NCBI GenBank assembly: GCA_035540975.1
Contig: DATLFN010000152.1
Location: 1,541 to 65,540 of the forward strand
Origin: Acidimicrobiales bacterium
GTDB taxonomy: Bacteria; Actinomycetota; Acidimicrobiia; Acidimicrobiales; GCA-2861595
DNA length: 64,000 nucleotides
Reading direction: 5' to 3'
In this document: positions 3,046-32,367 of the stretch, in pieces
Layout: the number at the start of each line of letters is the position of its first letter
Position numbering within the stretch: position 1 is the first letter of the stretch
The notes under the pieces: generated by a model
Told to the model about the DNA's origin: nothing
The model's database searches: none
What the model saw: only the letters and a program-made list of their open reading frames with translations
Made by a program: the position numbers and the translations under genes

Positions 3046-4878
<1,833 letters not shown>

Positions 4879-4884
4879 CCCACG

Positions 4885-5670
4885 GTGCCCGGACCCGGCC
4901 ACCCCGGCCACTTCCCGAAGCCCCCCGGCTGGATCGACCGGCCGGGGCAGCCGTCGTCGGCCGGCGGCGGCCCTTCGCGTCCCCCGCGGACGTCGGGTTC
5001 GGCCGACGGCTCACCGGGCGCCGGCCCGCCCGGGCGCCCGTCCGCCGGTCCCGCCACCGACCCGGCACCGGGCCCGGGCCCGTCAGCGGGCAGCGGGACC
5101 GGCTCCGCCGAGAGCGGCGCCCCGTCGGGCGGGTCGAGCCCGGCCCAGGAGGCGGCGGCCAAGGTCGCCGAGATGCTCGGGCGCCAGGAGGAGGACGACG
5201 GCGACGCCGTCGAGGAGGCCGCCGAGGCCGTCGAGCACGACATCGACGCCCTGGCCAAGGCGGAGGCCCAGCGCGACGAGTACCTCGACTCGCTGCGCCG
5301 CCTCCAGGCCGACTTCGAGAACTACAAGAAGCGCATCGCCCGCCAGCACGCCGACATCCAGGAGCGGGCGGCCGAGAAGCTGGTCGAGAGCCTGCTCCCG
5401 GTCCTGGACAACTTCGACCTGGCCATCTCCCACGCCGCCGCGGACGCCGGCCTGGAGCCGATCCACCGGTCGCTGCTGAGCGTGCTGGCGTCGGCCGGTC
5501 TGGAGCGCATGGACCCGGCCGGGCAGCCCTTCGACCCGAACGAGCACGACGCCGTCCTCCACGAGCCGGGGGGCGACTCGGCCGAGCCGGAGGTCATCGA
5601 GGTGATGCGGGCCGGCTACCGGTGGAAGGGCCGTGTCCTGCGCCCGGCCATGGTGAAGGTGAAGGGCTAG
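4885..5670 (+). CDS. grpE: Nucleotide exchange factor GrpE (long Pro/Gly-rich N-terminus; start uncertain)
   Basis: RLQADFENYKKR, LLPVLDNFD, DPNEHDAV and GYRWKGRVLRPAMVKV motifs. GTG start lies 7 nt after the dnaK stop. The roughly 100-aa PG-rich N-terminus has high GC3, so it is probably translated. Confidence 0.88.
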   Translation: MPGPGHPGHFPKPPGWIDRPGQPSSAGGGPSRPPRTSGSADGSPGAGPPGRPSAGPATDPAPGPGPSAGSGTGSAESGAPSGGSSPAQEAAAKVAEMLGRQEEDDGDAVEEAAEAVEHDIDALAKAEAQRDEYLDSLRRLQADFENYKKRIARQHADIQERAAEKLVESLLPVLDNFDLAISHAAADAGLEPIHRSLLSVLASAGLERMDPAGQPFDPNEHDAVLHEPGGDSAEPEVIEVMRAGYRWKGRVLRPAMVKVKG

Positions 5671-5688
5671 AGGTCGAGAGAGAAGGCT

Positions 5689-6789
5689 GTGCCGGCACAG
5701 CGCGAGTGGTTCGAGAAGGACTACTACAAGGTCCTCGGGGTCACCGAGAAGGCGTCCGAGAAGGACATCACCAGCGCGTACCGCCGGCTGGCCAAGAAGC
5801 TCCACCCCGACGCCAACCCCGGCTCCGAGGACCGCTTCAAGGAGGTCTCGGCCGCCTACGACGTGCTCGGCGACCCGGCCAGGCGCAAGGAGTACGACGA
5901 GGTCCGCCGCATGGGGCCGGCGGGGTTCGGCCGGCCCGGCGGGAACGGCGGCCCGGGCTTCGGCGGCGGCTTCCGCGTCGACGACCTGGGCGACCTGCTC
6001 GGCGGGCTCTTCACCAAGGGCCGCGCCACCCGCAGCCGGTCGTCACCCCAGCGCGGCGACGACCTCGAGGCGACGCTCAACCTGTCGTTCTCCGACGCCG
6101 TCGACGGGGTGATCACCTCGGTCAACGTCATCAGCGACGCCGCCTGCCACACGTGCAACGGCACCGGGGCGGCGCCGGGGACGTCGCCGGTGATCTGCTC
6201 GGCGTGTGGAGGGCGGGGAGCGGTGAACGAGAACCAGGGGCTTTTCTCGTTCAGCCAGCCGTGCCCGGAGTGCCGGGGGACCGGCATGCGGGTCGAGACG
6301 CCGTGCCGGACCTGTGCCGGCTCCGGCCTGGAGCGCCGCCCCCGCCAGGTCAAGGTGCGCGTCCCCGCCGGGATCGACGACGGGAAGCGCATCGTCCTCA
6401 AGGGGCGGGGCGGGGCAGGGCACAATGGGGGCCCTCCGGGAGACGTGTACGTGGTGGTGCGGGTGGCGAGCCATGAGCTGTTCGGTCGAAAGGGCAAGGA
6501 CCTGACCCTCACCGTCCCCGTCACGTTCGCCGAGGCCGCCCTGGGGGCCACGGTGAAGATCCCCACCCTCGGCGAGCCCGTCACCCTGAAGGTGCCACCG
6601 GGCACCCGGTCCGGCCGCACGTTCCGCGTGCGGGGGCGGGGCATCGACACCGGCGACGGCCACGGTGACCTGCTCGCCACCGTCGAGGTCGTCGTGCCCG
6701 AGAGGTTGTCCGAGGAGCAGCGGTCGGCCGTGGAGGCGCTGGCGGCCGCGTCGTCGGAGTCGCCCCGGCGCCACCTGGGCGTGGAGTGA
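5689..6789 (+). CDS. dnaJ: Co-chaperone DnaJ
   Basis: J domain DYYKVLGV...KKLHPDAN, a Gly-rich linker and four CxxCxGxG zinc-finger repeats (CHTCNGTG, CSACGGRG, CPECRGTG, CRTCAGSG). Confidence 0.95.
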   Translation: MPAQREWFEKDYYKVLGVTEKASEKDITSAYRRLAKKLHPDANPGSEDRFKEVSAAYDVLGDPARRKEYDEVRRMGPAGFGRPGGNGGPGFGGGFRVDDLGDLLGGLFTKGRATRSRSSPQRGDDLEATLNLSFSDAVDGVITSVNVISDAACHTCNGTGAAPGTSPVICSACGGRGAVNENQGLFSFSQPCPECRGTGMRVETPCRTCAGSGLERRPRQVKVRVPAGIDDGKRIVLKGRGGAGHNGGPPGDVYVVVRVASHELFGRKGKDLTLTVPVTFAEAALGATVKIPTLGEPVTLKVPPGTRSGRTFRVRGRGIDTGDGHGDLLATVEVVVPERLSEEQRSAVEALAAASSESPRRHLGVE

Positions 6790-25355: not shown

Positions 25356-26816
25356 CTACGTCCCCTGGCGCCAGGTCCGCTCGAACGGGAGGCGCCACGC
25401 GTGCGGGGCGATGAGCTGGTGGATCGCGTTGGGGCCCCATGAGCCCACGGCGTAGGGACGCACCGGGGGCGGCGACGCCAGGAGCGGAGCGGAGACCTCC
25501 CACAGCCGCTCCACTCCTTCGGCCGAGGTGAAGAGCGTGTGGTCACCACTCATGGCGTCGTGGATGAGGCGCTCGTACGCCTCCAGCACGTCGCCCGCCC
25601 GCCCCGTCTCGTGGAGGGCGAACTGGAGGCTCAGCTTGTCGAGGCGCATGCCCGGACCGGGCCGCTTGCCGTAGAAGGACAACGAGAGCCTTGAGGCGTC
25701 GGCCAGGTCGAAGGTGAGGTGGTCGGGGCCCTGGGCGCCGATCCCGGATCCCGTCGGGAACATGCTCTTCGGCGGCTCACGGAAGGCGATGGAGATGATG
25801 CGGGCTCCCTCGGCCAGCCGCTTGCCCGTGCGCAGGAAGAACGGCACTCCCGCCCACCGCCAGTTGTCGATCATGCAGCGCAGGGCGACGAACGTCTCCG
25901 TCTCCGACCCGGCGGCCACCCCGGCCTCGTCGCGGTACCCGGTGTACTGGCCGCGCACGACGTGGGACGGGTCGATCGGCACGAGCGACCGGAAGACCTT
26001 GTTCTTCTCCTCGCTGATCGCCCCCGGTTCGAGCGCGGTGGGCGGCTCCATGGCCACGAAGGCGAGCACCTGGAACAGGTGGGTCACCACCATGTCCCGG
26101 TAGGCGCCCGTGCTCTCGTAGAAGCCGATGCGGCTGCCGATGGCGAGCGTCTCCGGAACGTCGATCTGGACGTGGTCGATGAAGTTGCGGTTCCAGATCG
26201 GCTCGAACAGCCCGTTGGCGAACCGGAACGCCAGGATGTTCTGGGCGGCCTCCTTGCCGAGGAAGTGATCGATGCGGAAGATCTGCTCCTCGGCGAAGGT
26301 GCGATGGAGCGTGGCGTTCAGGGAGCAGGCGCTCGCGAGGTCGGTGCCGAAGGGTTTCTCCATGACGACGCGTGCGCGGTCGACGAGGCCGGCCTCCCCG
26401 AGAACTCGTACCGCGTCCGTCGCCGCCTTCGGCGGCACGCTGAGGTAGTGCAGGCGCCGCGGCTCCGGGCCGAGGTCGGCCTCGGCGAGGTCGACAGCCT
26501 TGCGGAGCCCTTCCGGGCCGGCACCCTGGGGCACGTACGTGAGGTTCCTCTCGAACGTCGACCAGTGGGCCGCCATGACCCGCGGCCGGCCGAACTGCTC
26601 GCACGCCTTGCGGGTCGCCTCACGGAAGCCCGCGGTGTCGAGGTCGTCGAGTGACGTGCCGACGATGCGGCACTCGGGCAGCAAGCCGGCGCAGGAGAGG
26701 TGGAGCAGGCCGGGGAGCAGCTTGCGGCGGGCCAGGTCACCGGTGGCGCCGACCAGCACGATGAGGTGCGGCTTCAGCGGCGACATCAGCGCCGAGGTGA
26801 TGTCGCTCGGTTCCAT
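25356..26816 (-). CDS. zwf: Glucose-6-phosphate dehydrogenase
   Basis: LVGATGDLARRKLLP (NADP-binding motif), RIDHFLGKE (active-site signature) and IQIDVPE-like HVQIDVPE. Confidence 0.9.
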   Translation of the reverse strand: MEPSDITSALMSPLKPHLIVLVGATGDLARRKLLPGLLHLSCAGLLPECRIVGTSLDDLDTAGFREATRKACEQFGRPRVMAAHWSTFERNLTYVPQGAGPEGLRKAVDLAEADLGPEPRRLHYLSVPPKAATDAVRVLGEAGLVDRARVVMEKPFGTDLASACSLNATLHRTFAEEQIFRIDHFLGKEAAQNILAFRFANGLFEPIWNRNFIDHVQIDVPETLAIGSRIGFYESTGAYRDMVVTHLFQVLAFVAMEPPTALEPGAISEEKNKVFRSLVPIDPSHVVRGQYTGYRDEAGVAAGSETETFVALRCMIDNWRWAGVPFFLRTGKRLAEGARIISIAFREPPKSMFPTGSGIGAQGPDHLTFDLADASRLSLSFYGKRPGPGMRLDKLSLQFALHETGRAGDVLEAYERLIHDAMSGDHTLFTSAEGVERLWEVSAPLLASPPPVRPYAVGSWGPNAIHQLIAPHAWRLPFERTWRQGT

Positions 26817-26828
26817 CCCGGTGCGACG

Positions 26829-27451
26829 TTAGGCGAGTGATCCCATGGCGCCGGCGGCCCCGGTGACGGTGGTGGCGCCGCCCGCGGTGGCGGCGGTGGC
26901 CCCGGTTGATCGGGTACGGGCCCGTCGCCCGGTCATCGCGCAGCGCCGACCGGTCCTCGCCGGCCACAGCTGAGTCGGTCGCCCTAGGCGGAGCAGTTGT
27001 CCTGAGCGCCACCGAGGCGGGTCGTCGTCCGGCTCGAAGCGGTGGCGGAAGGTGAAGGCTGTGGGCGTCGGGCCGTGCGCCCGGAGGTGAGCGAGCCGGG
27101 CGATGGCCTCGTCCACCGTCGGGATCCTCCCCTCGGGGACCCACCACAGGCACAGGATCGGTTGCACCGGCGCCTCGAAGAACTGGCGGCGGCGGAGGAA
27201 CTCCACGTGTGCCGAGCGGTAGGTGAAGTCCGCCAGGGCGTCGATCGACTCCCAGACGCTGAGGTTGAGATCTCCAGGGCGTCCTCGAAGGCGGAGATGC
27301 CGGTGGCGTTGCCGCTCTCGTCCTGGAGCCGCCAGACGAATCCGGGGCTCGCGTCGGCCAGCGCGTTGATCGACGCCAGGTTCGACCGGAAGTCGTCGAT
27401 CCTCGGGTCGTCGATGGGAGCCCGGAGGCGCCCGACGTTCAGCTGCGCCAC
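26829..27451 (-). pseudogene. DUF3291-family gene interrupted by a 1-nt frameshift (3' limit uncertain)
   Basis: The N-terminal part (M)AQLNVGRLRAPIDDPRIDDFRSNLASINALADASPGFVWRLQDESGNATGISAFEDALEI lies in one frame. Its continuation NLSVWESIDALADFTYRSAHVEFLRRRQFFEAPVQPILCLWWVPEGRIPTVDEAIARL...FTFRHRFEP lies in another. The junction is at about 27267-27275. GGAGG precedes GTG 27451. Confidence 0.65.
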
Positions 27452-27972
27452 GTGCACGCCTCCATGGTGTCGCACGGTGGCCGACCCGTCAGGCTCTGGT
27501 CGTCGGACGACGGGAGGACGCCGGCTCCATCGGGACGATCCCCCGCTACATCCCCCCGCGTGGCAGTCGCGCGGGAACGAGCCGAGCGACCGGGCGAGGC
27601 TGAGTCCCCGTCGCGGCGCCACTGCGGCGTGGCGCGGTTCCAACCTCCTCGCCGAAGGACGAAGGGGCCGGACGACGACGCCCGGGCCCTTCGTCCCCCC
27701 GAGCCGCTCCCCTGGTGGCTTCCGGCCGGCGCGGCGAGCGTGCCGAATCACAGGTCAAAGCGCGGCGACGGCGATCACGGGGCGGTTGACAGCGCCGGTG
27801 ATCCCAACTGGGTCGGGCTGTCCGGGGTGGTTGTCGCCAAGGGCGTATGGGCGTATTGTGTAGGTGCAGCCAACCTATAGCGATTGAGCAGAATGCGGCC
27901 GGCCGGGTGGTCCTCCTGGCCGTGAGCCCGGCCATGTCCTCCGACCGGTGTGTTGTGCCCGAGGAGGACGCC

Positions 27973-29853
27973 ATGTGCTTCAAGAACCTGCCGATCGACT
28001 TCGACGCGGATGGGCGCGCCTTCCTGCGGGAAGGCGGAGGCGATCCATACGCGATCTCGCCGGCGCCACGCCCGAGCTACGTCCGCCGCCCCGAGGGCCC
28101 CGGTGCGCAGCTGGCCTCGCCGCCGCGCCTGCGGGACTGGAACATCGACCCGATGACCCGGGTGGCCGGGGCGCTGGCCATCCACACCGTGCTCGACCTG
28201 GAGAACCGCAAGGCGGTGGAGGCCCACTCGCGCGCCATGCTCTTCCGTGGCTACGAGATCATCCTCCAGGGCCGTGACCCCCGAGACGCCATCGACATCA
28301 GCTCCCGGGCGTGCGGCGTGTGCGGCGGGGTGCACGCCACCGTGTCCTCGCTCGGGCTCGACATGGCGTTCGGCGTTGTTCCCCCACCCCTCGGCACCGA
28401 GGTGCGCAACCTGGGCGAGGTGGGGGAGATGTTCTACGACCATCCGCTGCACCTCGGGCTGCTTGCCGGGCCCGACTACTCCACTGCCCTGGTGTCGATC
28501 ACCAACCCCGAGCTGGTCACCAGGGCGGAGAAGACCCTTGCTCCCCATGGCGACGTCCACGGCTACCACACGATCAAGGACATCATGGATGCCCTCGACC
28601 CGCTCACTGGCCAGATCTACCTGGAGGCACTGGAGTGGACGCGGGTCGGCCGCATCATGTGCATGCTGATGTACGGCAAGTACCCGCACCCCTCGACGCT
28701 GGCCCCCGGCGGGGTCACCACCACCATCTCCACCTCCTCCTTCAACGAGTACTACACCCAGCTCGGGAAGATCTTCGACTTCTGCAAGGTCATCTGCCGC
28801 ATCTGGGACGACCTCGTCGACTTCTTCCTGGAGGCCAACCCGGCGTACGAGCAGGTCGGCGCCAGGGAGTGCAACCTGGCCCAGACGGGCATCTGGGACG
28901 ACTCCGGGGCCTATGACGCCACCTACGCCAACGCCGACGCCTGGGGCAACCGGCGCTGGGCCAAGCCGGGAATCATCCTCGATGGGAAGCTCGTGACCAC
29001 GAACCTGGTGGACATCAACATGGGCTTCGAGGAGTTCGTGGATCACTCCTTCTACGAGGACTGGACAACGGGGGGGAGCCCACGCTTCCGCACCGAGTCG
29101 CTCGGAAACCCGATCTCGCCGTACCACCCTTGGAACAAGACCACGGTGCCGAAGCCGACGGCCACCGACTTCCGTGGCAAGTACACGTGGGCCACGGCGC
29201 CCCGCTGGGACCGCCGAACCGTGGAGACGGGCGCCTACGGCCGCATGTGGACCACCGCCCTGGCCGCCGACATGGTCAAGAACCCATTCCTCGAGGCGAC
29301 CGGCGACGGCCTGCGCATGGTCATGCCCCGCCACGGCCTCCCCGAGGAGGAGCTGTTCTGGAAGGTGCCGAGGACCCTGAACGCCCTCGAGCGCAACCGG
29401 GGCCGCGCCTACGCCATGGCCTTCACCGCCGCCATCGGCATGAACTGCATGCTCAAGGCCCTCGAGTACTGGCGCCGGGGTGAGACCAAGGTGCACACGC
29501 CCTACAAGGTGCCGAAGGACGAGCGGCTGGCCGTCGGGTTCTGGGAGGCCGGCCGGGGCTGGCTGGTCCACCACATCCACATGGACAAGGGCAAGCTGCT
29601 CAACTACCAGATCACGACACCGTCGACGATGAACGCGTCGCCCCGCGACCCGTTCGGGGGCCTCGGCCCGTACGAGCAGGCCATCGTCGACACGCCCATC
29701 CTCGAGAGCGTCCCCGACGACCAGGTCAAGGGCCTGGACGTGCTGCGGGCCGTGCGCAGCTTCGACCCGTGCATGCCCTGCACGACCCACATGGACACCG
29801 GCAGGGGAATGCTCGTGCGCGAGGTCAACTCGTGCGGCTGCACCTTGGACTGA
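27973..29853 (+). CDS. [NiFe]-hydrogenase large-subunit homologue, stand-alone (no small subunit adjacent)
   Basis: LFRGYEIILQGRDPRDAIDISSRACGVCGGVH (L2 RxCGxCxxxH), YDHPLHL, EAGRGWLVHH...YQITTPSTMNASPRD and SFDPCMPCTTH (L5) plus a 20-aa tail. The L1 position reads DPMTRVAGALA rather than RxEGH. ATG 27973 follows GAGGAGG; ATG 27934 is an alternative. Confidence 0.85.
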   Translation: MCFKNLPIDFDADGRAFLREGGGDPYAISPAPRPSYVRRPEGPGAQLASPPRLRDWNIDPMTRVAGALAIHTVLDLENRKAVEAHSRAMLFRGYEIILQGRDPRDAIDISSRACGVCGGVHATVSSLGLDMAFGVVPPPLGTEVRNLGEVGEMFYDHPLHLGLLAGPDYSTALVSITNPELVTRAEKTLAPHGDVHGYHTIKDIMDALDPLTGQIYLEALEWTRVGRIMCMLMYGKYPHPSTLAPGGVTTTISTSSFNEYYTQLGKIFDFCKVICRIWDDLVDFFLEANPAYEQVGARECNLAQTGIWDDSGAYDATYANADAWGNRRWAKPGIILDGKLVTTNLVDINMGFEEFVDHSFYEDWTTGGSPRFRTESLGNPISPYHPWNKTTVPKPTATDFRGKYTWATAPRWDRRTVETGAYGRMWTTALAADMVKNPFLEATGDGLRMVMPRHGLPEEELFWKVPRTLNALERNRGRAYAMAFTAAIGMNCMLKALEYWRRGETKVHTPYKVPKDERLAVGFWEAGRGWLVHHIHMDKGKLLNYQITTPSTMNASPRDPFGGLGPYEQAIVDTPILESVPDDQVKGLDVLRAVRSFDPCMPCTTHMDTGRGMLVREVNSCGCTLD

Positions 29854-29953
29854 GGCCCCCCGCCGGGTCCGGCCGTCCGCTCCCCGTGCGGCCGGGCCCG
29901 GAACGGGCACACGCCGGGCGGCCGCCCCACGCGAAGGGAAGGACTCGATTGAG

Positions 29954-30148
29954 ATGCCGAAGGTTGACCCGACAACCCACGAACCCATGACCGATGCGCC
30001 CGACGCACCGGATGACCAGCGAGGGGGCAAGACCATCGGAGATCCTGCCCTCGACGACGCCACGGTCACCGGAGGATCCGGCACGAGGGGCGACGAGCTG
30101 GACGAGACCAGTCGCCTGCCTGGTGAGAAGCCGGCCGAAGGAGAGTGA
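29954..30148 (+). CDS. Small acidic, probably disordered protein (64 aa)
   Basis: MPKVDPTTHEPMTDAPDAPDDQRGG...DELDETSRLPGEKPAEGE. A GAAGGGAAGGA ribosome-binding site sits about 10 nt upstream of the ATG. GC3 is moderate. No family recognised. Confidence 0.45.
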   Translation: MPKVDPTTHEPMTDAPDAPDDQRGGKTIGDPALDDATVTGGSGTRGDELDETSRLPGEKPAEGE

Positions 30149-30226
30149 TCTTCGTCGGCTTGGCGCTCGCCAACTCCGGCGTGCACCCGGACCGCGCCGC
30201 GGGGAAACCAGGCGTCGACCGTGGCG

Positions 30227-30337
30227 ATGCGCACCGTGTGTCTGTGCTCGACCTGTGACGCCGAGAAGCTCCGGGGCCACCTCGACAGCGGCCGTGTGGT
30301 CCCGCCGCAGGAGAACCCGGCCACCGGATGGGAATGA
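30227..30337 (+). CDS. Candidate 36-aa Cys-rich small ORF translationally coupled to pncB
   Basis: My own reading (below the ORF-track size cutoff): MRTVCLCSTCDAEKLRGHLDSGRVVPPQENPATGWE. G/C at the third position in about 31 of 35 codons. Its TGA (30335-30337) overlaps the pncB ATG 30334 as ATGA. Confidence 0.4.
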   Translation: MRTVCLCSTCDAEKLRGHLDSGRVVPPQENPATGWE

Positions 30338-31695
30338 CCACCGACGTCCCCCACGCGCTGCTCGTCGACCTCTATGAGCTCACCATGGTCGACGTCTACC
30401 GCCGGGAGGACATGGCGCATCGCCCGGCGACGTTCAGCCTCTTCGTCCGAACCATGCCGCCCGGGCGCGGCTACCTCGTCGCGGCGGGGCTCGACGATGC
30501 CCTGCGCTGGCTCGAGGAGCTCCGCTTCGGCTCCGAAGAGCTGGCAGCCGTCGAGCGGCTCGGCCTTTTCGACCGGGCGTTCCTGGACTGGCTGGGCGAG
30601 CTGCGCTTCACCGGATCGGTGAGGGCCGTGCCCGAGGGCACGGCGGTGTTCGCCCACGAGCCGCTCATCGAAGTCGACGGGCCCATCGCAGAAGCTCAGC
30701 TGGCTGAGACGTTCCTGCTCAACCAGTTCACGGTCCAGACCACGCTCGCCACCAAGGCCGCCCGCTGCCGTCACGCGGCAACCGGCCGGGCCGTGGTCGA
30801 CTTCGCCCTTCGCAGGGCGCAGGGAATCGACGCCGGCATGACGCTGGCCCGCACCGGTCCCCTCGTCGGGCTGGCAGCCACCAGCAACGTGGCGGGCGCC
30901 GATCGCTACGGCCTTTCCGCCAGCGGAACCATGGCCCACTCCTTCGTCCAGGTCCATGCCGACGAGGCCGACGCCTTCAGGGCCTTCGCCGGTGCCTTTG
31001 GCGACGCCACCGTCCTGCTCGTCGACACCTACGACAGCCACCAGGGAATCGACAGAGCCATCCACGTGGCTACCGAGTGCCGGAGCCACGGCACCGAGAT
31101 CCGAGGCGTCCGCCTCGACTCCGGCGATCTGGCGGCACTGGCCCGCCATGCCCGCCGACGACTCGACGAGGCCGGCTTCCCCTGGGGTGAAGGTGTTCGT
31201 CAGCGGCGGCCTCGACGAGCTGGAGATCCACCGCCTGGTCGACGAGGAGGGTGCACCGATCGACGGGTTCGGTGTCGGTTCGGCCCTCGGCGTCTCGGCT
31301 GACGTGCCCACCCTTGACACCGTGTGCAAGCTGGTGAGCTACGACGGTCGCCCGGTTCGCAAGACCTCACCGGCAAGGAGATCTGGCCCGGTGCCAAGCA
31401 GGTGTGGCGGGCGCTCGACTGGTCGTTCGATGTCGTCACCATGGCCGACGAGCGGTCACCCGCACCGGGCCGGCGACCGCTGCTGATCGAGGTCATGCAC
31501 GGTGGCCGACGTACTCCTTCAGGCCGGGTGACGCTGACCGAGGCCAACCGACACTTCGAGCAGGAGTGGGCCGGCCTCCCCGCGCCGCTGAAGCACCTGT
31601 CGGCACCGGCGGCCCATCCGGTAAACATCTCGGCCGGGCTCCGCCGGCTCGCCGAATCGCTCGACGCGAAACGGGGATCAATGGAGGCGCCGTGA
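30334..31695 (+). pseudogene. pncB: Nicotinate phosphoribosyltransferase with two 1-nt frameshifts
   Basis: Three consecutive frames carry one protein: MTTDVPHALLVDLYELTM...RLDSGDLAALARHARRRLDEAGFP | GVKVFVSGGLDELEIHRLVDEEGAPIDGFGVGSAL...KLVSYDGRPVRK | GKEIWPGAKQVWRAL... The junctions are at the CCCC run 31179-31182 and near 31368-31373. Confidence 0.75.
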
Positions 31696-32367
31696 CCGAA
31701 GCGCTGTCGGATCCCGCCTTTGACCGACGGACGGCGCTCGTCGTCGTCGACGTTCAGAACGACTTCCGACGCCGAGGGCAGTCTCTACGTGAACGGCGGC
31801 GAGCAGATCATCCCGACGATCAACCGCCTCGTCGCCGCTGTGCAGGCAGCCGGGGGCGCGATCGTCTACACCCAGGACTGGCATCCGAAGGTCACGCCGC
31901 ATTTCCGCAAGGACGGCGGAGCCTGGCCTGTGCACTGCGTGGCGGACACTTGGGGAGCACAGCTGCATCCCGACCTCGACGTCGAAGGTCCGGTGATCCG
32001 CAAGGGCACCGCCGGCGCGGACGGCTAATCCGGGTTCAGCGTGCAGGAGGTGACCACTGGCTCCGAGAGGCCAAGCGGCCTGCATGACGTGCTGAGAGAG
32101 CGTGGCATCAACCGCATCATCGTCGTGGGGCTCGCACAGGACGTGTGCGTCAAGGAAACCGTGCTCGACGGACGCCGTCTCGGCTACGAGACCGTTGTCC
32201 CGCTGACCGCAACCCGTGCGGTCAGTCTCGAGCCCGACGACGCTCGCCGTGCCTTCGAGGCGATGGTCGCAGCCGGCGCCATGGTCCACCGATGCGTCCC
32301 TTGCGGGGGCACCGGTGTCGAAGCCGAGGACCGCTCCCGGTCCTCTGCGAATGGCGGAGACGAGTAG
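31692..32367 (+). pseudogene. pncA: Nicotinamidase/pyrazinamidase with one frameshift and one in-frame TAA
   Basis: VTEALSDPAFDRRTALVVVDVQNDF | DAEGSLYVNGGEQIIPTINRL...WPVHCVADTWGAQLHPDL...GADG * SGFSVQEVT...IIVVGLAQDVCVKETVLD. The frameshift is near 31774-31777. TAA at 32026-32028 sits where the family has Tyr (GYSGF). GTG overlaps the pncB stop (GTGA). Confidence 0.75.

Follow-up and report, generated by a model that had tools for sequence, protein, structure and literature searches.

The 64,000-nt stretch of Acidimicrobiales DNA analyzed here (contig DATLFN010000152.1, positions 1,541 to 65,540 of the forward strand; hereafter, the window, with a GC content of ~70%) contains a gene for a [NiFe]-hydrogenase large subunit that stands alone, with no gene for a small subunit or for maturation proteins beside it. 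The gene is intact and under purifying selection, and the same partner-less state recurs among its relatives. The features of the locus are listed below in window positions; context classes of related loci, to which the list refers, are defined further on, and dN/dS is the ratio of nonsynonymous to synonymous substitution rates.

27657..27696, no strand assigned: GC-rich hairpin with two 18-nt arms (27657-27674 and 27679-27696) that are 89% complementary
27850..27972, plus strand: upstream segment copied together with the gene according to blastn, with an AT-richer box at ~27850-27897 (CTATAG) and the Shine-Dalgarno sequence GAGGAGGA at 27961-27968
27973..29853, plus strand: [NiFe]-hydrogenase large-subunit gene without adjacent partner, 626 amino acids (aa) plus stop (PF00374; closest structure 5aa5_C; dN/dS 0.11)
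27973..28107, plus strand: clade-specific N-terminal extension, aa 1-45, starting MCFKNLPIDFD, with no counterpart in group 1h
28147..28179, plus strand: DPMTRVAGALA, aa 59-69, at the site of the canonical DPxTRxEGH (L1) motif, with Glu and His both replaced by Ala (motif comparison)
28312..28323, plus strand: N-terminal Ni-Fe ligand pair C114-x-x-C117 (RACGVCGGVH), invariant in alignment A2 and in all context classes
29545..29559, plus strand: EAGRG with the conserved active-site arginine R528, which is invariant; the clade has EAGRG or EASRG
29770..29790, plus strand: C-terminal Ni-Fe ligand pair C600-x-x-C603 and H606 (DPCMPCTTH), invariant
29791..29850, plus strand: 20-aa C-terminal extension MDTGRGMLVREVNSCGCTLD with two more conserved cysteines, present in all context classes

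The open frame on the plus strand spans 27847 to 29853. The ATG at 27973 is the real start, since it is preceded at a distance of 5 nt by the GAGGAGGA Shine-Dalgarno sequence and since the N terminus that it defines, MCFKNLPI(E/D)FD, is kept in more than 80 homologues. The protein matched the Pfam family PF00374 (NiFeSe_Hases) over its full length (E = 1.1e-68; score of 232.8 bits, with the cut-off at 25.8). Every large-subunit motif that a preliminary description of the sequence had quoted was found, as were the four metal-ligating cysteines (C114, C117, C600, and C603) and the cleavable-tail layout. The search of solved structures returned 67 hydrogenase large-subunit sequences from the PDB at E ≤ 1e-3; the top one was 5aa5_C, HofG of the actinobacterial-type (group 1h) hydrogenase of Cupriavidus necator (E = 2.3e-154), and hydrogenase structures other than 5aa5 scored 1e-46 or worse. 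A Foldseek search with an AlphaFold2 (AF2) model of the 626-aa protein also placed 5aa5_C first (E = 4.9e-36, TM scores of 0.64/0.71). This model, built on a shallow alignment of 76-86% identical sequences, is mediocre (pLDDT, the predicted local distance difference test, of 63.5, with values below 50 in the N- and C-terminal regions and in those of the metal site); it serves as a check of the fold only and is too poor for mapping the subunit interface.

The alignment with HofG begins at residue 43 of the query. The N-terminal extension that precedes it is conserved in every context class, and residues C2 to P7 are invariant in alignment A2. At the other end, the tail (...REVNSCGCTLE) is present in all context classes, and C621 and C623 are invariant. 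Presumably, this tail is a handle for maturation and endopeptidase cleavage, a role assigned on the basis of general [NiFe] biology as given in PMC7294309. From the ligand motifs that it retains, the protein is predicted to bind a Ni-Fe cofactor.

The preliminary description had singled out DPMTRVAGALA in place of the canonical L1 motif as the mark of an altered proton pathway, and had also listed EAGRG in place of EAPRG. Both sequences are there, but neither is peculiar to this gene. All of the full-length clade members (70/70) carry DP[MV]TRVAGAL[AS], RACGVCG..H, EA[GS]RG, DPCMPCTTH, and a tail ending in ...RE[VI]NSCGCTLE. The motifs are the same with or without an adjacent small subunit, and the copies that share them include ~40 that are linked to a small subunit in hyp clusters. 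The counterparts in the active, structurally characterized enzymes of group 1h are DPITRIVGSLG, in which Val and Ser stand for Glu and His, and EAVRG. The L1 variant thus does not set the window copy apart, being also characteristic of a described subgroup in so far as group 1h likewise lacks both residues. Loss of the Glu/His pair in L1 is the normal state of aerobic 1h/1m-type enzymes, and it should not be taken as degeneration. By gene-cluster content and taxonomy, the two criteria applied, the clade fits hydrogenase group 1m (Hhm).

The closest 120 database clusters are 76-86% identical to the window protein and 622-638 aa long, and those with names are from Acidimicrobiales metagenome-assembled genomes (MAGs); with clustering at 50%, identity to the next representative falls to 54%. 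When species-representative genomes were scanned, 130 relatives were detected and 79 loci returned, all in Acidimicrobiales or Actinomycetota MAGs. Over the more than 120 protein clusters and the 79 loci together, identity to the window protein is 76-92%. The related sequences place the window DNA in Acidimicrobiales of soil metagenomes, and many MAGs contribute two to four large-subunit loci each. The 79 loci were classed using tblastn with reference proteins and the precomputed Pfam annotation of exemplar contigs.

In class A (40 of the 79 loci), the small-subunit gene lies directly upstream of the large-subunit gene and is followed, after the latter, by genes for a ~175-aa HycI-like protein, NifU, a 167-aa protein, a HycI protease, a TPR protein, and further proteins; PadR, a CbiA/CooC-type ATPase, HypC, a SIS protein, HypD, HypE, and HypF are encoded nearby. 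The gap between the two subunit genes is ~70-120 nt in the exemplars L088 and L090, both of which contain HycI, NifU, CbiA/CooC-like, and TPR_12 proteins, with a BPL_C (BirA-like) protein in L090, whose small-subunit gene is at 4552-5877. In L088 (9-5982), the cluster adjoins genes for the large and small subunits of RuBisCO, aldolase, ribulose-phosphate epimerase, fructose-bisphosphatase, and phosphoribulokinase, an arrangement that fits hydrogen-driven CO2 fixation in Acidimicrobiales.

Class B comprises ~20 loci without a small subunit, in which a regulator with HTH_3/HTH_31 and Cupin_2 domains is divergently oriented with respect to the large-subunit gene. The latter is followed, with a 4-nt overlap, by a gene for a 400-490-aa protein whose C-terminal half is a SpoIIE/PP2C domain, and a histidine kinase and a GerE response regulator are sometimes next. 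The regulators, ~380 aa long with the Cupin_2 domain at the C terminus (L005:8700-9872, L006:8800-9921, and L093:8732-9874, all on the minus strand), are homologous across lineages (56-88% identity). At L093, the regulator gene sits between the large-subunit gene and a complete operon for the nickel enzyme urease, and the PP2C fusion is missing. One MAG has a gene for an alternative oxidase (AOX) shortly after the large subunit-PP2C pair (L005:13576-14286), which may point to a connection with oxygen or redox physiology.

In ~6 loci (class C), an HTH_20/ArsR-like regulator of 228-251 aa is divergent from the large-subunit gene (L089:7919-10621, L010:1791-4643, L066:9023-11881, and L096:301-3137); the pair at L089 is inserted between rplA and rplJ in the ribosomal-protein/rpoB region. 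The ~10 class D copies, to which the window gene belongs, have no recognizable partner, and their contexts vary between lineages, being shared only among closely related genomes. Unsupervised clustering of the open reading frames (ORFs) within 5 kb revealed no universal partner for these naked copies. About half of the 79 loci therefore lack a small subunit, in contexts that recur, and the window locus is not a one-off deletion in a clade whose other members always sit beside one. The orthologue comparison that the preliminary description had called for thus shows the L1 variant to be invariant and the partner-less state to be recurrent.

More distant homologues were also recovered. P0126, P0128, and P0132 are full-length (590-616 aa) and 37-41% identical but have lost the Ni-Fe ligands: their L1 motifs read SRTRGLSSGAH, SRSSGPGSGAH, or GRACGTDSVAH, they end at IRSFDP/S/V before the second CxxC, and one of them has the FKNLPIE N terminus. 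Judged by these motifs, they are the truly "dead" hydrogenase-like proteins. Two other large subunits, P0125 and P0135 (42-44% identical), end exactly at CxxCxxH without a C-terminal extension and have unusual L1 motifs (ACGWCGGVH and CCGYHGGQH).

To estimate the constraint on the window gene, substitution rates were calculated with the NG86 method. The dN/dS against its nearest relatives (L009 of class D and L010 and L066 of class C; 92% aa identity) was 0.11 at a dS of ~0.44. Similar values were obtained for other partner-less pairs (0.07-0.11) and for pairs of class A operon copies (0.06-0.10). Among the 626 columns of the alignment, 281 are invariant in partner-less copies and 278 in operon copies, with mean entropies of 0.47 and 0.55, respectively. 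A single column is conserved in operon copies yet variable in partner-less ones, no more than obtained by shuffling of the labels, and four columns discriminate weakly between the two sets, by conservative changes. Within its subclade, 11 changes are found in the window protein alone, compared to 13 for the operon copy L011. These comparisons indicate that the window copy is under purifying selection and bears no sign of decay despite three broken neighbors. The preliminary description had also entertained a very recent relic, for which a dN/dS near 1 would be expected; the ratio of ~0.11 and the absence of an excess of damaging private changes speak against it.

Context classes are interleaved in a neighbor-joining tree, where the window gene groups with L009 (class D) and L010/L066 (class C), then with L011 (class A) and L012 (class B). 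The closest genome with a near-orthologue, MAG nzgw85, holds both L010 and the complete operon L011 with its hyp genes, and at least eight other MAGs pair an operon copy with a partner-less copy. The best class A match of a partner-less copy is that of its own genome in five of nine cases; in the remaining cases, the own-genome copy ranks second (two cases) or fourth (two cases) of 37. Identical tracts of 94-146 nt are found in same-genome pairs, compared to 41-66 nt in between-genome pairs of similar divergence. The paralogues (loci L005-L087) cluster by genome and not by locus type, which suggests concerted evolution by gene conversion among dispersed large-subunit genes. Since the class B regulators are homologous across lineages, the simplest reading of these patterns is that the loci are old and that their large-subunit genes may have been homogenized by conversion.

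Homology between loci was followed by blastn, since tblastx synteny was swamped by spurious summed matches in DNA of this GC content. The similarity of the window locus to L009, L010, and L066 is limited to the ORF with only ~57-123 nt upstream and ~6-55 nt downstream of it. It would appear from this extent that only the gene and an upstream leader of ~120 bp were copied into the housekeeping region. The segment 27850..27972 is likely a promoter/operator and 5′ leader. Searches around the gene gave no match to a sigma-70 promoter consensus or an intrinsic terminator, 26700-30400 contains no riboswitch or any other Rfam family, and there are no flanking direct or inverted repeats hinting at a mobile element. 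The hairpin at 27657-27696, which had been listed in the preliminary description, does exist; its minimum free energy (−35.4 kcal/mol, z = −1.99) barely beats that of shuffled sequences, 8 of 200 of which fold equally well, and it lies outside the segment common to the paralogue loci. It is probably incidental.

When the whole 64 kb was searched by tblastn with the proteins of two group 1h clusters, those of C. necator pHG1 and of a Streptomyces fungicidicus plasmid, only the large subunit was matched; there was no group 1h small subunit, NifU, DUF5947, DUF6084, protease, or HypA-F. The 34 proteins of two clade-specific clusters likewise gave no match at E ≤ 0.01 in the window, and remnants of a small subunit or of an HTH_20 or HTH-cupin regulator were not seen in the flanks even at E ≤ 5. 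The lack of small-subunit and maturation genes, first noticed in the immediate flanks, thus extends to the whole window.

Upstream are the housekeeping genes purS, purQ, purL, a PHP-domain gene, purF, purM, and zwf; downstream are a 64-aa ORF, pncB, pncA, and genes for a branched-chain keto-acid dehydrogenase E1 and an amino-acid dehydrogenase. The 1157-nt gap upstream of the gene holds a DUF3291 gene split over two frames (26829-27751, minus strand), which bears out the earlier impression of pseudogenes on this side. The N- and C-terminal domains of pncB (NAPRTase; 30328-31695, plus strand) are in different frames, and pncA (isochorismatase; 31720-32367, plus strand) is split at profile positions 96/103; these two NAD salvage genes seem to be in decay in the population. 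The identical hydrogenase protein is encoded on six contigs. The gene order was the same in the four places examined, which derive from four samples (ENA and JGI) with contigs of up to 110 kb, and the pncA split and the other gene calls recurred in all four. The shared order and the recurring split show that these features truly belong to the population and are not products of assembly. The 64-aa ORF (29954-30148, plus strand), called as a gene in all four assemblies, encodes a very acidic, low-complexity protein (MPKVDPTTHEPMTDAPDAPDD...); it has no Pfam match and no homologue beside any other large-subunit copy.

To summarize what bears on function, the gene is intact, it is under purifying selection, it retains its catalytic and maturation motifs, and operon and partner-less copies occur together in related genomes. 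The most likely reading, to which we give an even chance of being correct, is that it encodes a working spare copy of the catalytic subunit, which would mature in trans and form its complex with a small subunit from another locus. The parent enzyme would be an Acidimicrobiales uptake hydrogenase of the oxygen-tolerant, cytoplasmic, aerobic 1h-like type, which corresponds to group 1m by cluster content. HypA-F would load the precursor with the NiFe(CO)(CN)2 cofactor, the conserved C-terminal tail would be processed by a protease encoded in the canonical hhm operon at another place in the genome, and the matured large subunit would pair in trans with the single small subunit, HhmS, made from that operon. 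Under its own promoter, the copy would then serve as an alternative or replacement isoform of the catalytic subunit. This reading draws its support from motifs that are intact and identical to those of linked copies and from the retention of a strong Shine-Dalgarno sequence and the conserved upstream box. Unrelaxed constraint across the protein is what is expected if the interface with the small subunit is still in use, and the tracking of partner-less copies with the operon copy of the same genome fits compatibility with one small subunit.

Several observations weigh against pairing in trans. No small subunit, hyp gene, or protease of this organism is encoded within the 64-kb window, and we found no precedent in the literature for trans-pairing of an unlinked large subunit. 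Many paralogues are tied to dedicated regulators and to the protease-fold::PP2C fusion, which looks more like signaling than like a spare part. Homogenization by gene conversion could mimic retained constraint. The regulator adjacent to the gene in its nearest relatives is lost in the window copy, which also has three disrupted flanking genes. Last, at three otherwise invariant columns the window protein has a private, conservative change (A49S, N209D, and D375E), the second highest count of such changes among 70 sequences.

The fusion protein of class B bears directly on the next alternative. Its gene follows the partner-less large-subunit gene directly at L005:11878-13344, at L006:11878-13077, and across the ~20 class B loci. 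In an AF2 model of the fusion (pLDDT 79.8), the N-terminal domain resembles the maturation peptidase structures 5ttx and 5zby (TM scores of 0.68-0.70), while the C-terminal domain resembles the RsbU domain of Rv1364c (3ke6; E = 2.4e-17). In databases, the protein goes by the name of "hydrogenase maturation protease" or of "PP2C phosphatase." Inspection by eye shows that the GxG motif and the His are retained in the HycI-like domain and that Gly stands for the canonical metal-binding Asp; because of this substitution, it may bind the large subunit rather than cleave it. Class A operons carry two protease homologues, the true HycI and the ~175-aa HycI-like protein encoded after the large subunit. 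The latter (L088:11881-12417 and L090:7881-8411; Pfam HycI E = 4.9e-4, below the cut-off) has VVLVGAMP where VVVDAVD is usual, again with Asp replaced by Gly, and is the same module as that fused to PP2C in class B.

These arrangements suggest that the window protein could work independently of a small subunit, sensing H2, O2, the redox state, or nickel, or else handling nickel, an explanation that is the main rival but that we hold to be on balance unlikely. The state of its cofactor or of its maturation would be read by protease-fold::PP2C, HTH-cupin, or ArsR-like partners, acting in trans in the case of the window gene. Consistent with this, ~21 loci combine an HTH_3/Cupin_2 regulator, the large subunit, and a HycI-like::SpoIIE protein with a 4-nt gene overlap; the fusion family extends to more than 120 clusters, some bearing both PF01750 and PF07228, and its AF2 model matches maturation peptidases and an RsbU domain. 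The ~6 loci with a divergent HTH_20/ArsR-like regulator include the nearest relatives of the window gene, one locus adjoins a urease operon, and isolated large subunits can hold their cofactor and weakly activate H2 (PMC8159394). The window copy, however, is devoid of these partners or remnants of them, and no class-specific signature separates partner-less copies from operon copies. The known H2 sensors (group 2b) keep their small subunit and lack the tail, and the neighboring regulators could merely control the expression of isoforms. The idea of a sensor or repurposed protein in the preliminary description thus gains indirect, family-level support from the paralogues, whose partners the window copy lacks. 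A wider version of this explanation, in which the partner-less HhmL paralogues are unrecognized [NiFe]-based signaling modules that report H2, O2, nickel, or the state of maturation, with the window gene as a trans-acting member, seems to us quite unlikely. Such modules may act by two routes: through the degenerate protease domain and the RsbU-type PP2C domain, feeding partner-switching control, or through the dedicated HTH-cupin or ArsR-like regulators.

It is improbable that the gene is a recently stranded, functionless duplicate, brought by recombination into a region in decay and kept intact by the shortness of the time elapsed or by repair through gene conversion with the operon copy as donor. 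None of the other 79 loci shares its context, the regulator of its nearest relatives has been lost, and the flanking DUF3291, pncB, and pncA genes are disrupted; the three private substitutions at invariant columns and the signs of conversion tracts among paralogues would also fit. Yet the 626-codon frame is open beside three broken neighbors, the dN/dS of 0.11 was obtained over a dS of 0.44, the private changes are conservative, and the load on the terminal branch (11) does not exceed that in the operon copy L011 (13). Moreover, the protein is identical on six contigs with the same gene order in four samples, and the Shine-Dalgarno sequence and upstream box are conserved. An assembly or binning artefact, in which a hydrogenase gene would have been fused to unrelated housekeeping DNA on a chimeric contig, can be practically dismissed: although highly similar paralogues can confuse short-read assemblers, four independent ENA/JGI assemblies with contigs of up to 110 kb agree on the gene order, and many long contigs that bear partner-less copies come from separate studies, with long-read assemblies among them.

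The window protein itself is a 1h-like/1m-type large subunit, an already known kind. A literature search for orphan or stand-alone large subunits and for links between hydrogenases and PP2C returned nothing relevant. As far as we could find, it has not been described that about half of the large-subunit genes in this clade recurrently lack a partner while under selection, that genomes hold two to four large-subunit copies, or that such genes are coupled to regulators of their own and to a protease-fold::PP2C fusion. Surveys use hhyL, hylL, and hhmL as markers of atmospheric-H2 oxidizers, normalized to single-copy genes; since about half of the copies in this clade lack a small subunit and genomes hold two to four of them, estimates of abundance and community percentage for Acidimicrobiia may be inflated. 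If trans-pairing is true, it would be the first natural case of [NiFe] isoform swapping or repair by replacement in the literature that we searched. If instead the copies act alone, they would be sensors or "minimal hydrogenases" of natural origin, with a concrete, testable link to signaling in the protease-fold::PP2C fusion.

Among known systems, group 1m is the closest to the clade in its gene clusters. As described in a 2022 ISME J paper (PMC9561532), HhmSL is encoded by adjacent subunit genes accompanied by a HybD peptidase, an Fe-S assembly protein, a CooC-type ATPase, a TPR protein, and a BirA homologue, together with a DUF1059 protein and two 82-92-aa proteins with a single transmembrane (TM) segment; the group is confined to Actinobacteriota and includes an hhmL-positive Acidimicrobiales (Ilumatobacter) MAG. 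The class A relatives share the adjacent subunits, the HycI/HybD peptidase, and the NifU-type, CooC/CbiA-type ATPase, TPR, and BirA-like proteins. A further common point is 5AA5 as the best structural template. DUF1059 had no match in the precomputed Pfam lists, and L090 has unannotated ORFs of 82, 91, and 95 aa. The window gene differs in having neither small subunit nor cluster, and stand-alone paralogues are unmentioned in the passages of PMC9561532 consulted.

Likeness to group 1h (formerly group 5; HhyL/HofG) includes 5AA5 as the closest structure, the absence of Glu/His in DPxTRxEGH, the non-Pro residue in EAxRG, and the lack of a Tat motif in the small subunit of the related class A operons. 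In contrast, identity to the enzymes of C. necator, Streptomyces, Mycobacterium, and Methylocystis is 43-44%, L1 reads SSRACGVCGGVH in the window protein and TSRICGICGDNH in group 1h, and the window protein is extended by 45 aa at its N terminus and ends in a Cys-containing tail that differs from that of 1h. In the 1h clusters of pHG1 and S. fungicidicus, genes for NifU-like, DUF5947, and DUF6084 proteins and for one of ~470 aa separate the large subunit from the protease. A NifU-domain protein is kept in class A, whereas tblastn revealed no DUF5947 or DUF6084 homologue in any of the 79 loci. Membership in group 1h was rejected on the L1 signature, the identity, and the accessory genes. Group 1l (Hyl) has five small TM proteins encoded between the subunit genes and shows, besides large insertions, an identity to 1h below 40% (bioRxiv 10.1101/2020.08.06.239558); it was rejected as well, as the subunit genes of the relatives are adjacent and the identity of 43-44% to 1h comes with few gaps.

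Large subunits on their own are known from C. necator, where isolated HoxC and HoxG carry the complete NiFe(CO)(CN)2 cofactor in vitro and activate H2 at a low rate (PMC8159394, PMC9886862). Those are laboratory preparations of proteins whose genes are linked to small subunits, while in the present clade the two subunits are separated in the genome itself, repeatedly and under selection. A [NiFe] module tied to signaling, as in the paralogue loci with the PP2C fusion, kinase, and response regulator, resembles the regulatory hydrogenases of group 2b (HoxBC/HupUV), which keep the small subunit, lack the C-terminal extension, and have a histidine kinase as their partner. The window protein belongs to a different clade and has no signaling neighbor; membership in group 2b was rejected, since the 20-aa tail is present and conserved and neither a small subunit nor a kinase is encoded near the gene. 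For the spare-subunit reading, a parallel may be drawn to cyanobacterial psbA, a multi-copy gene family for the catalytic subunit D1 whose members are kept similar by gene conversion. Although the protein and the process are unrelated, in both cases dispersed, separately regulated copies of a damage-prone catalytic subunit would serve one set of partner subunits.

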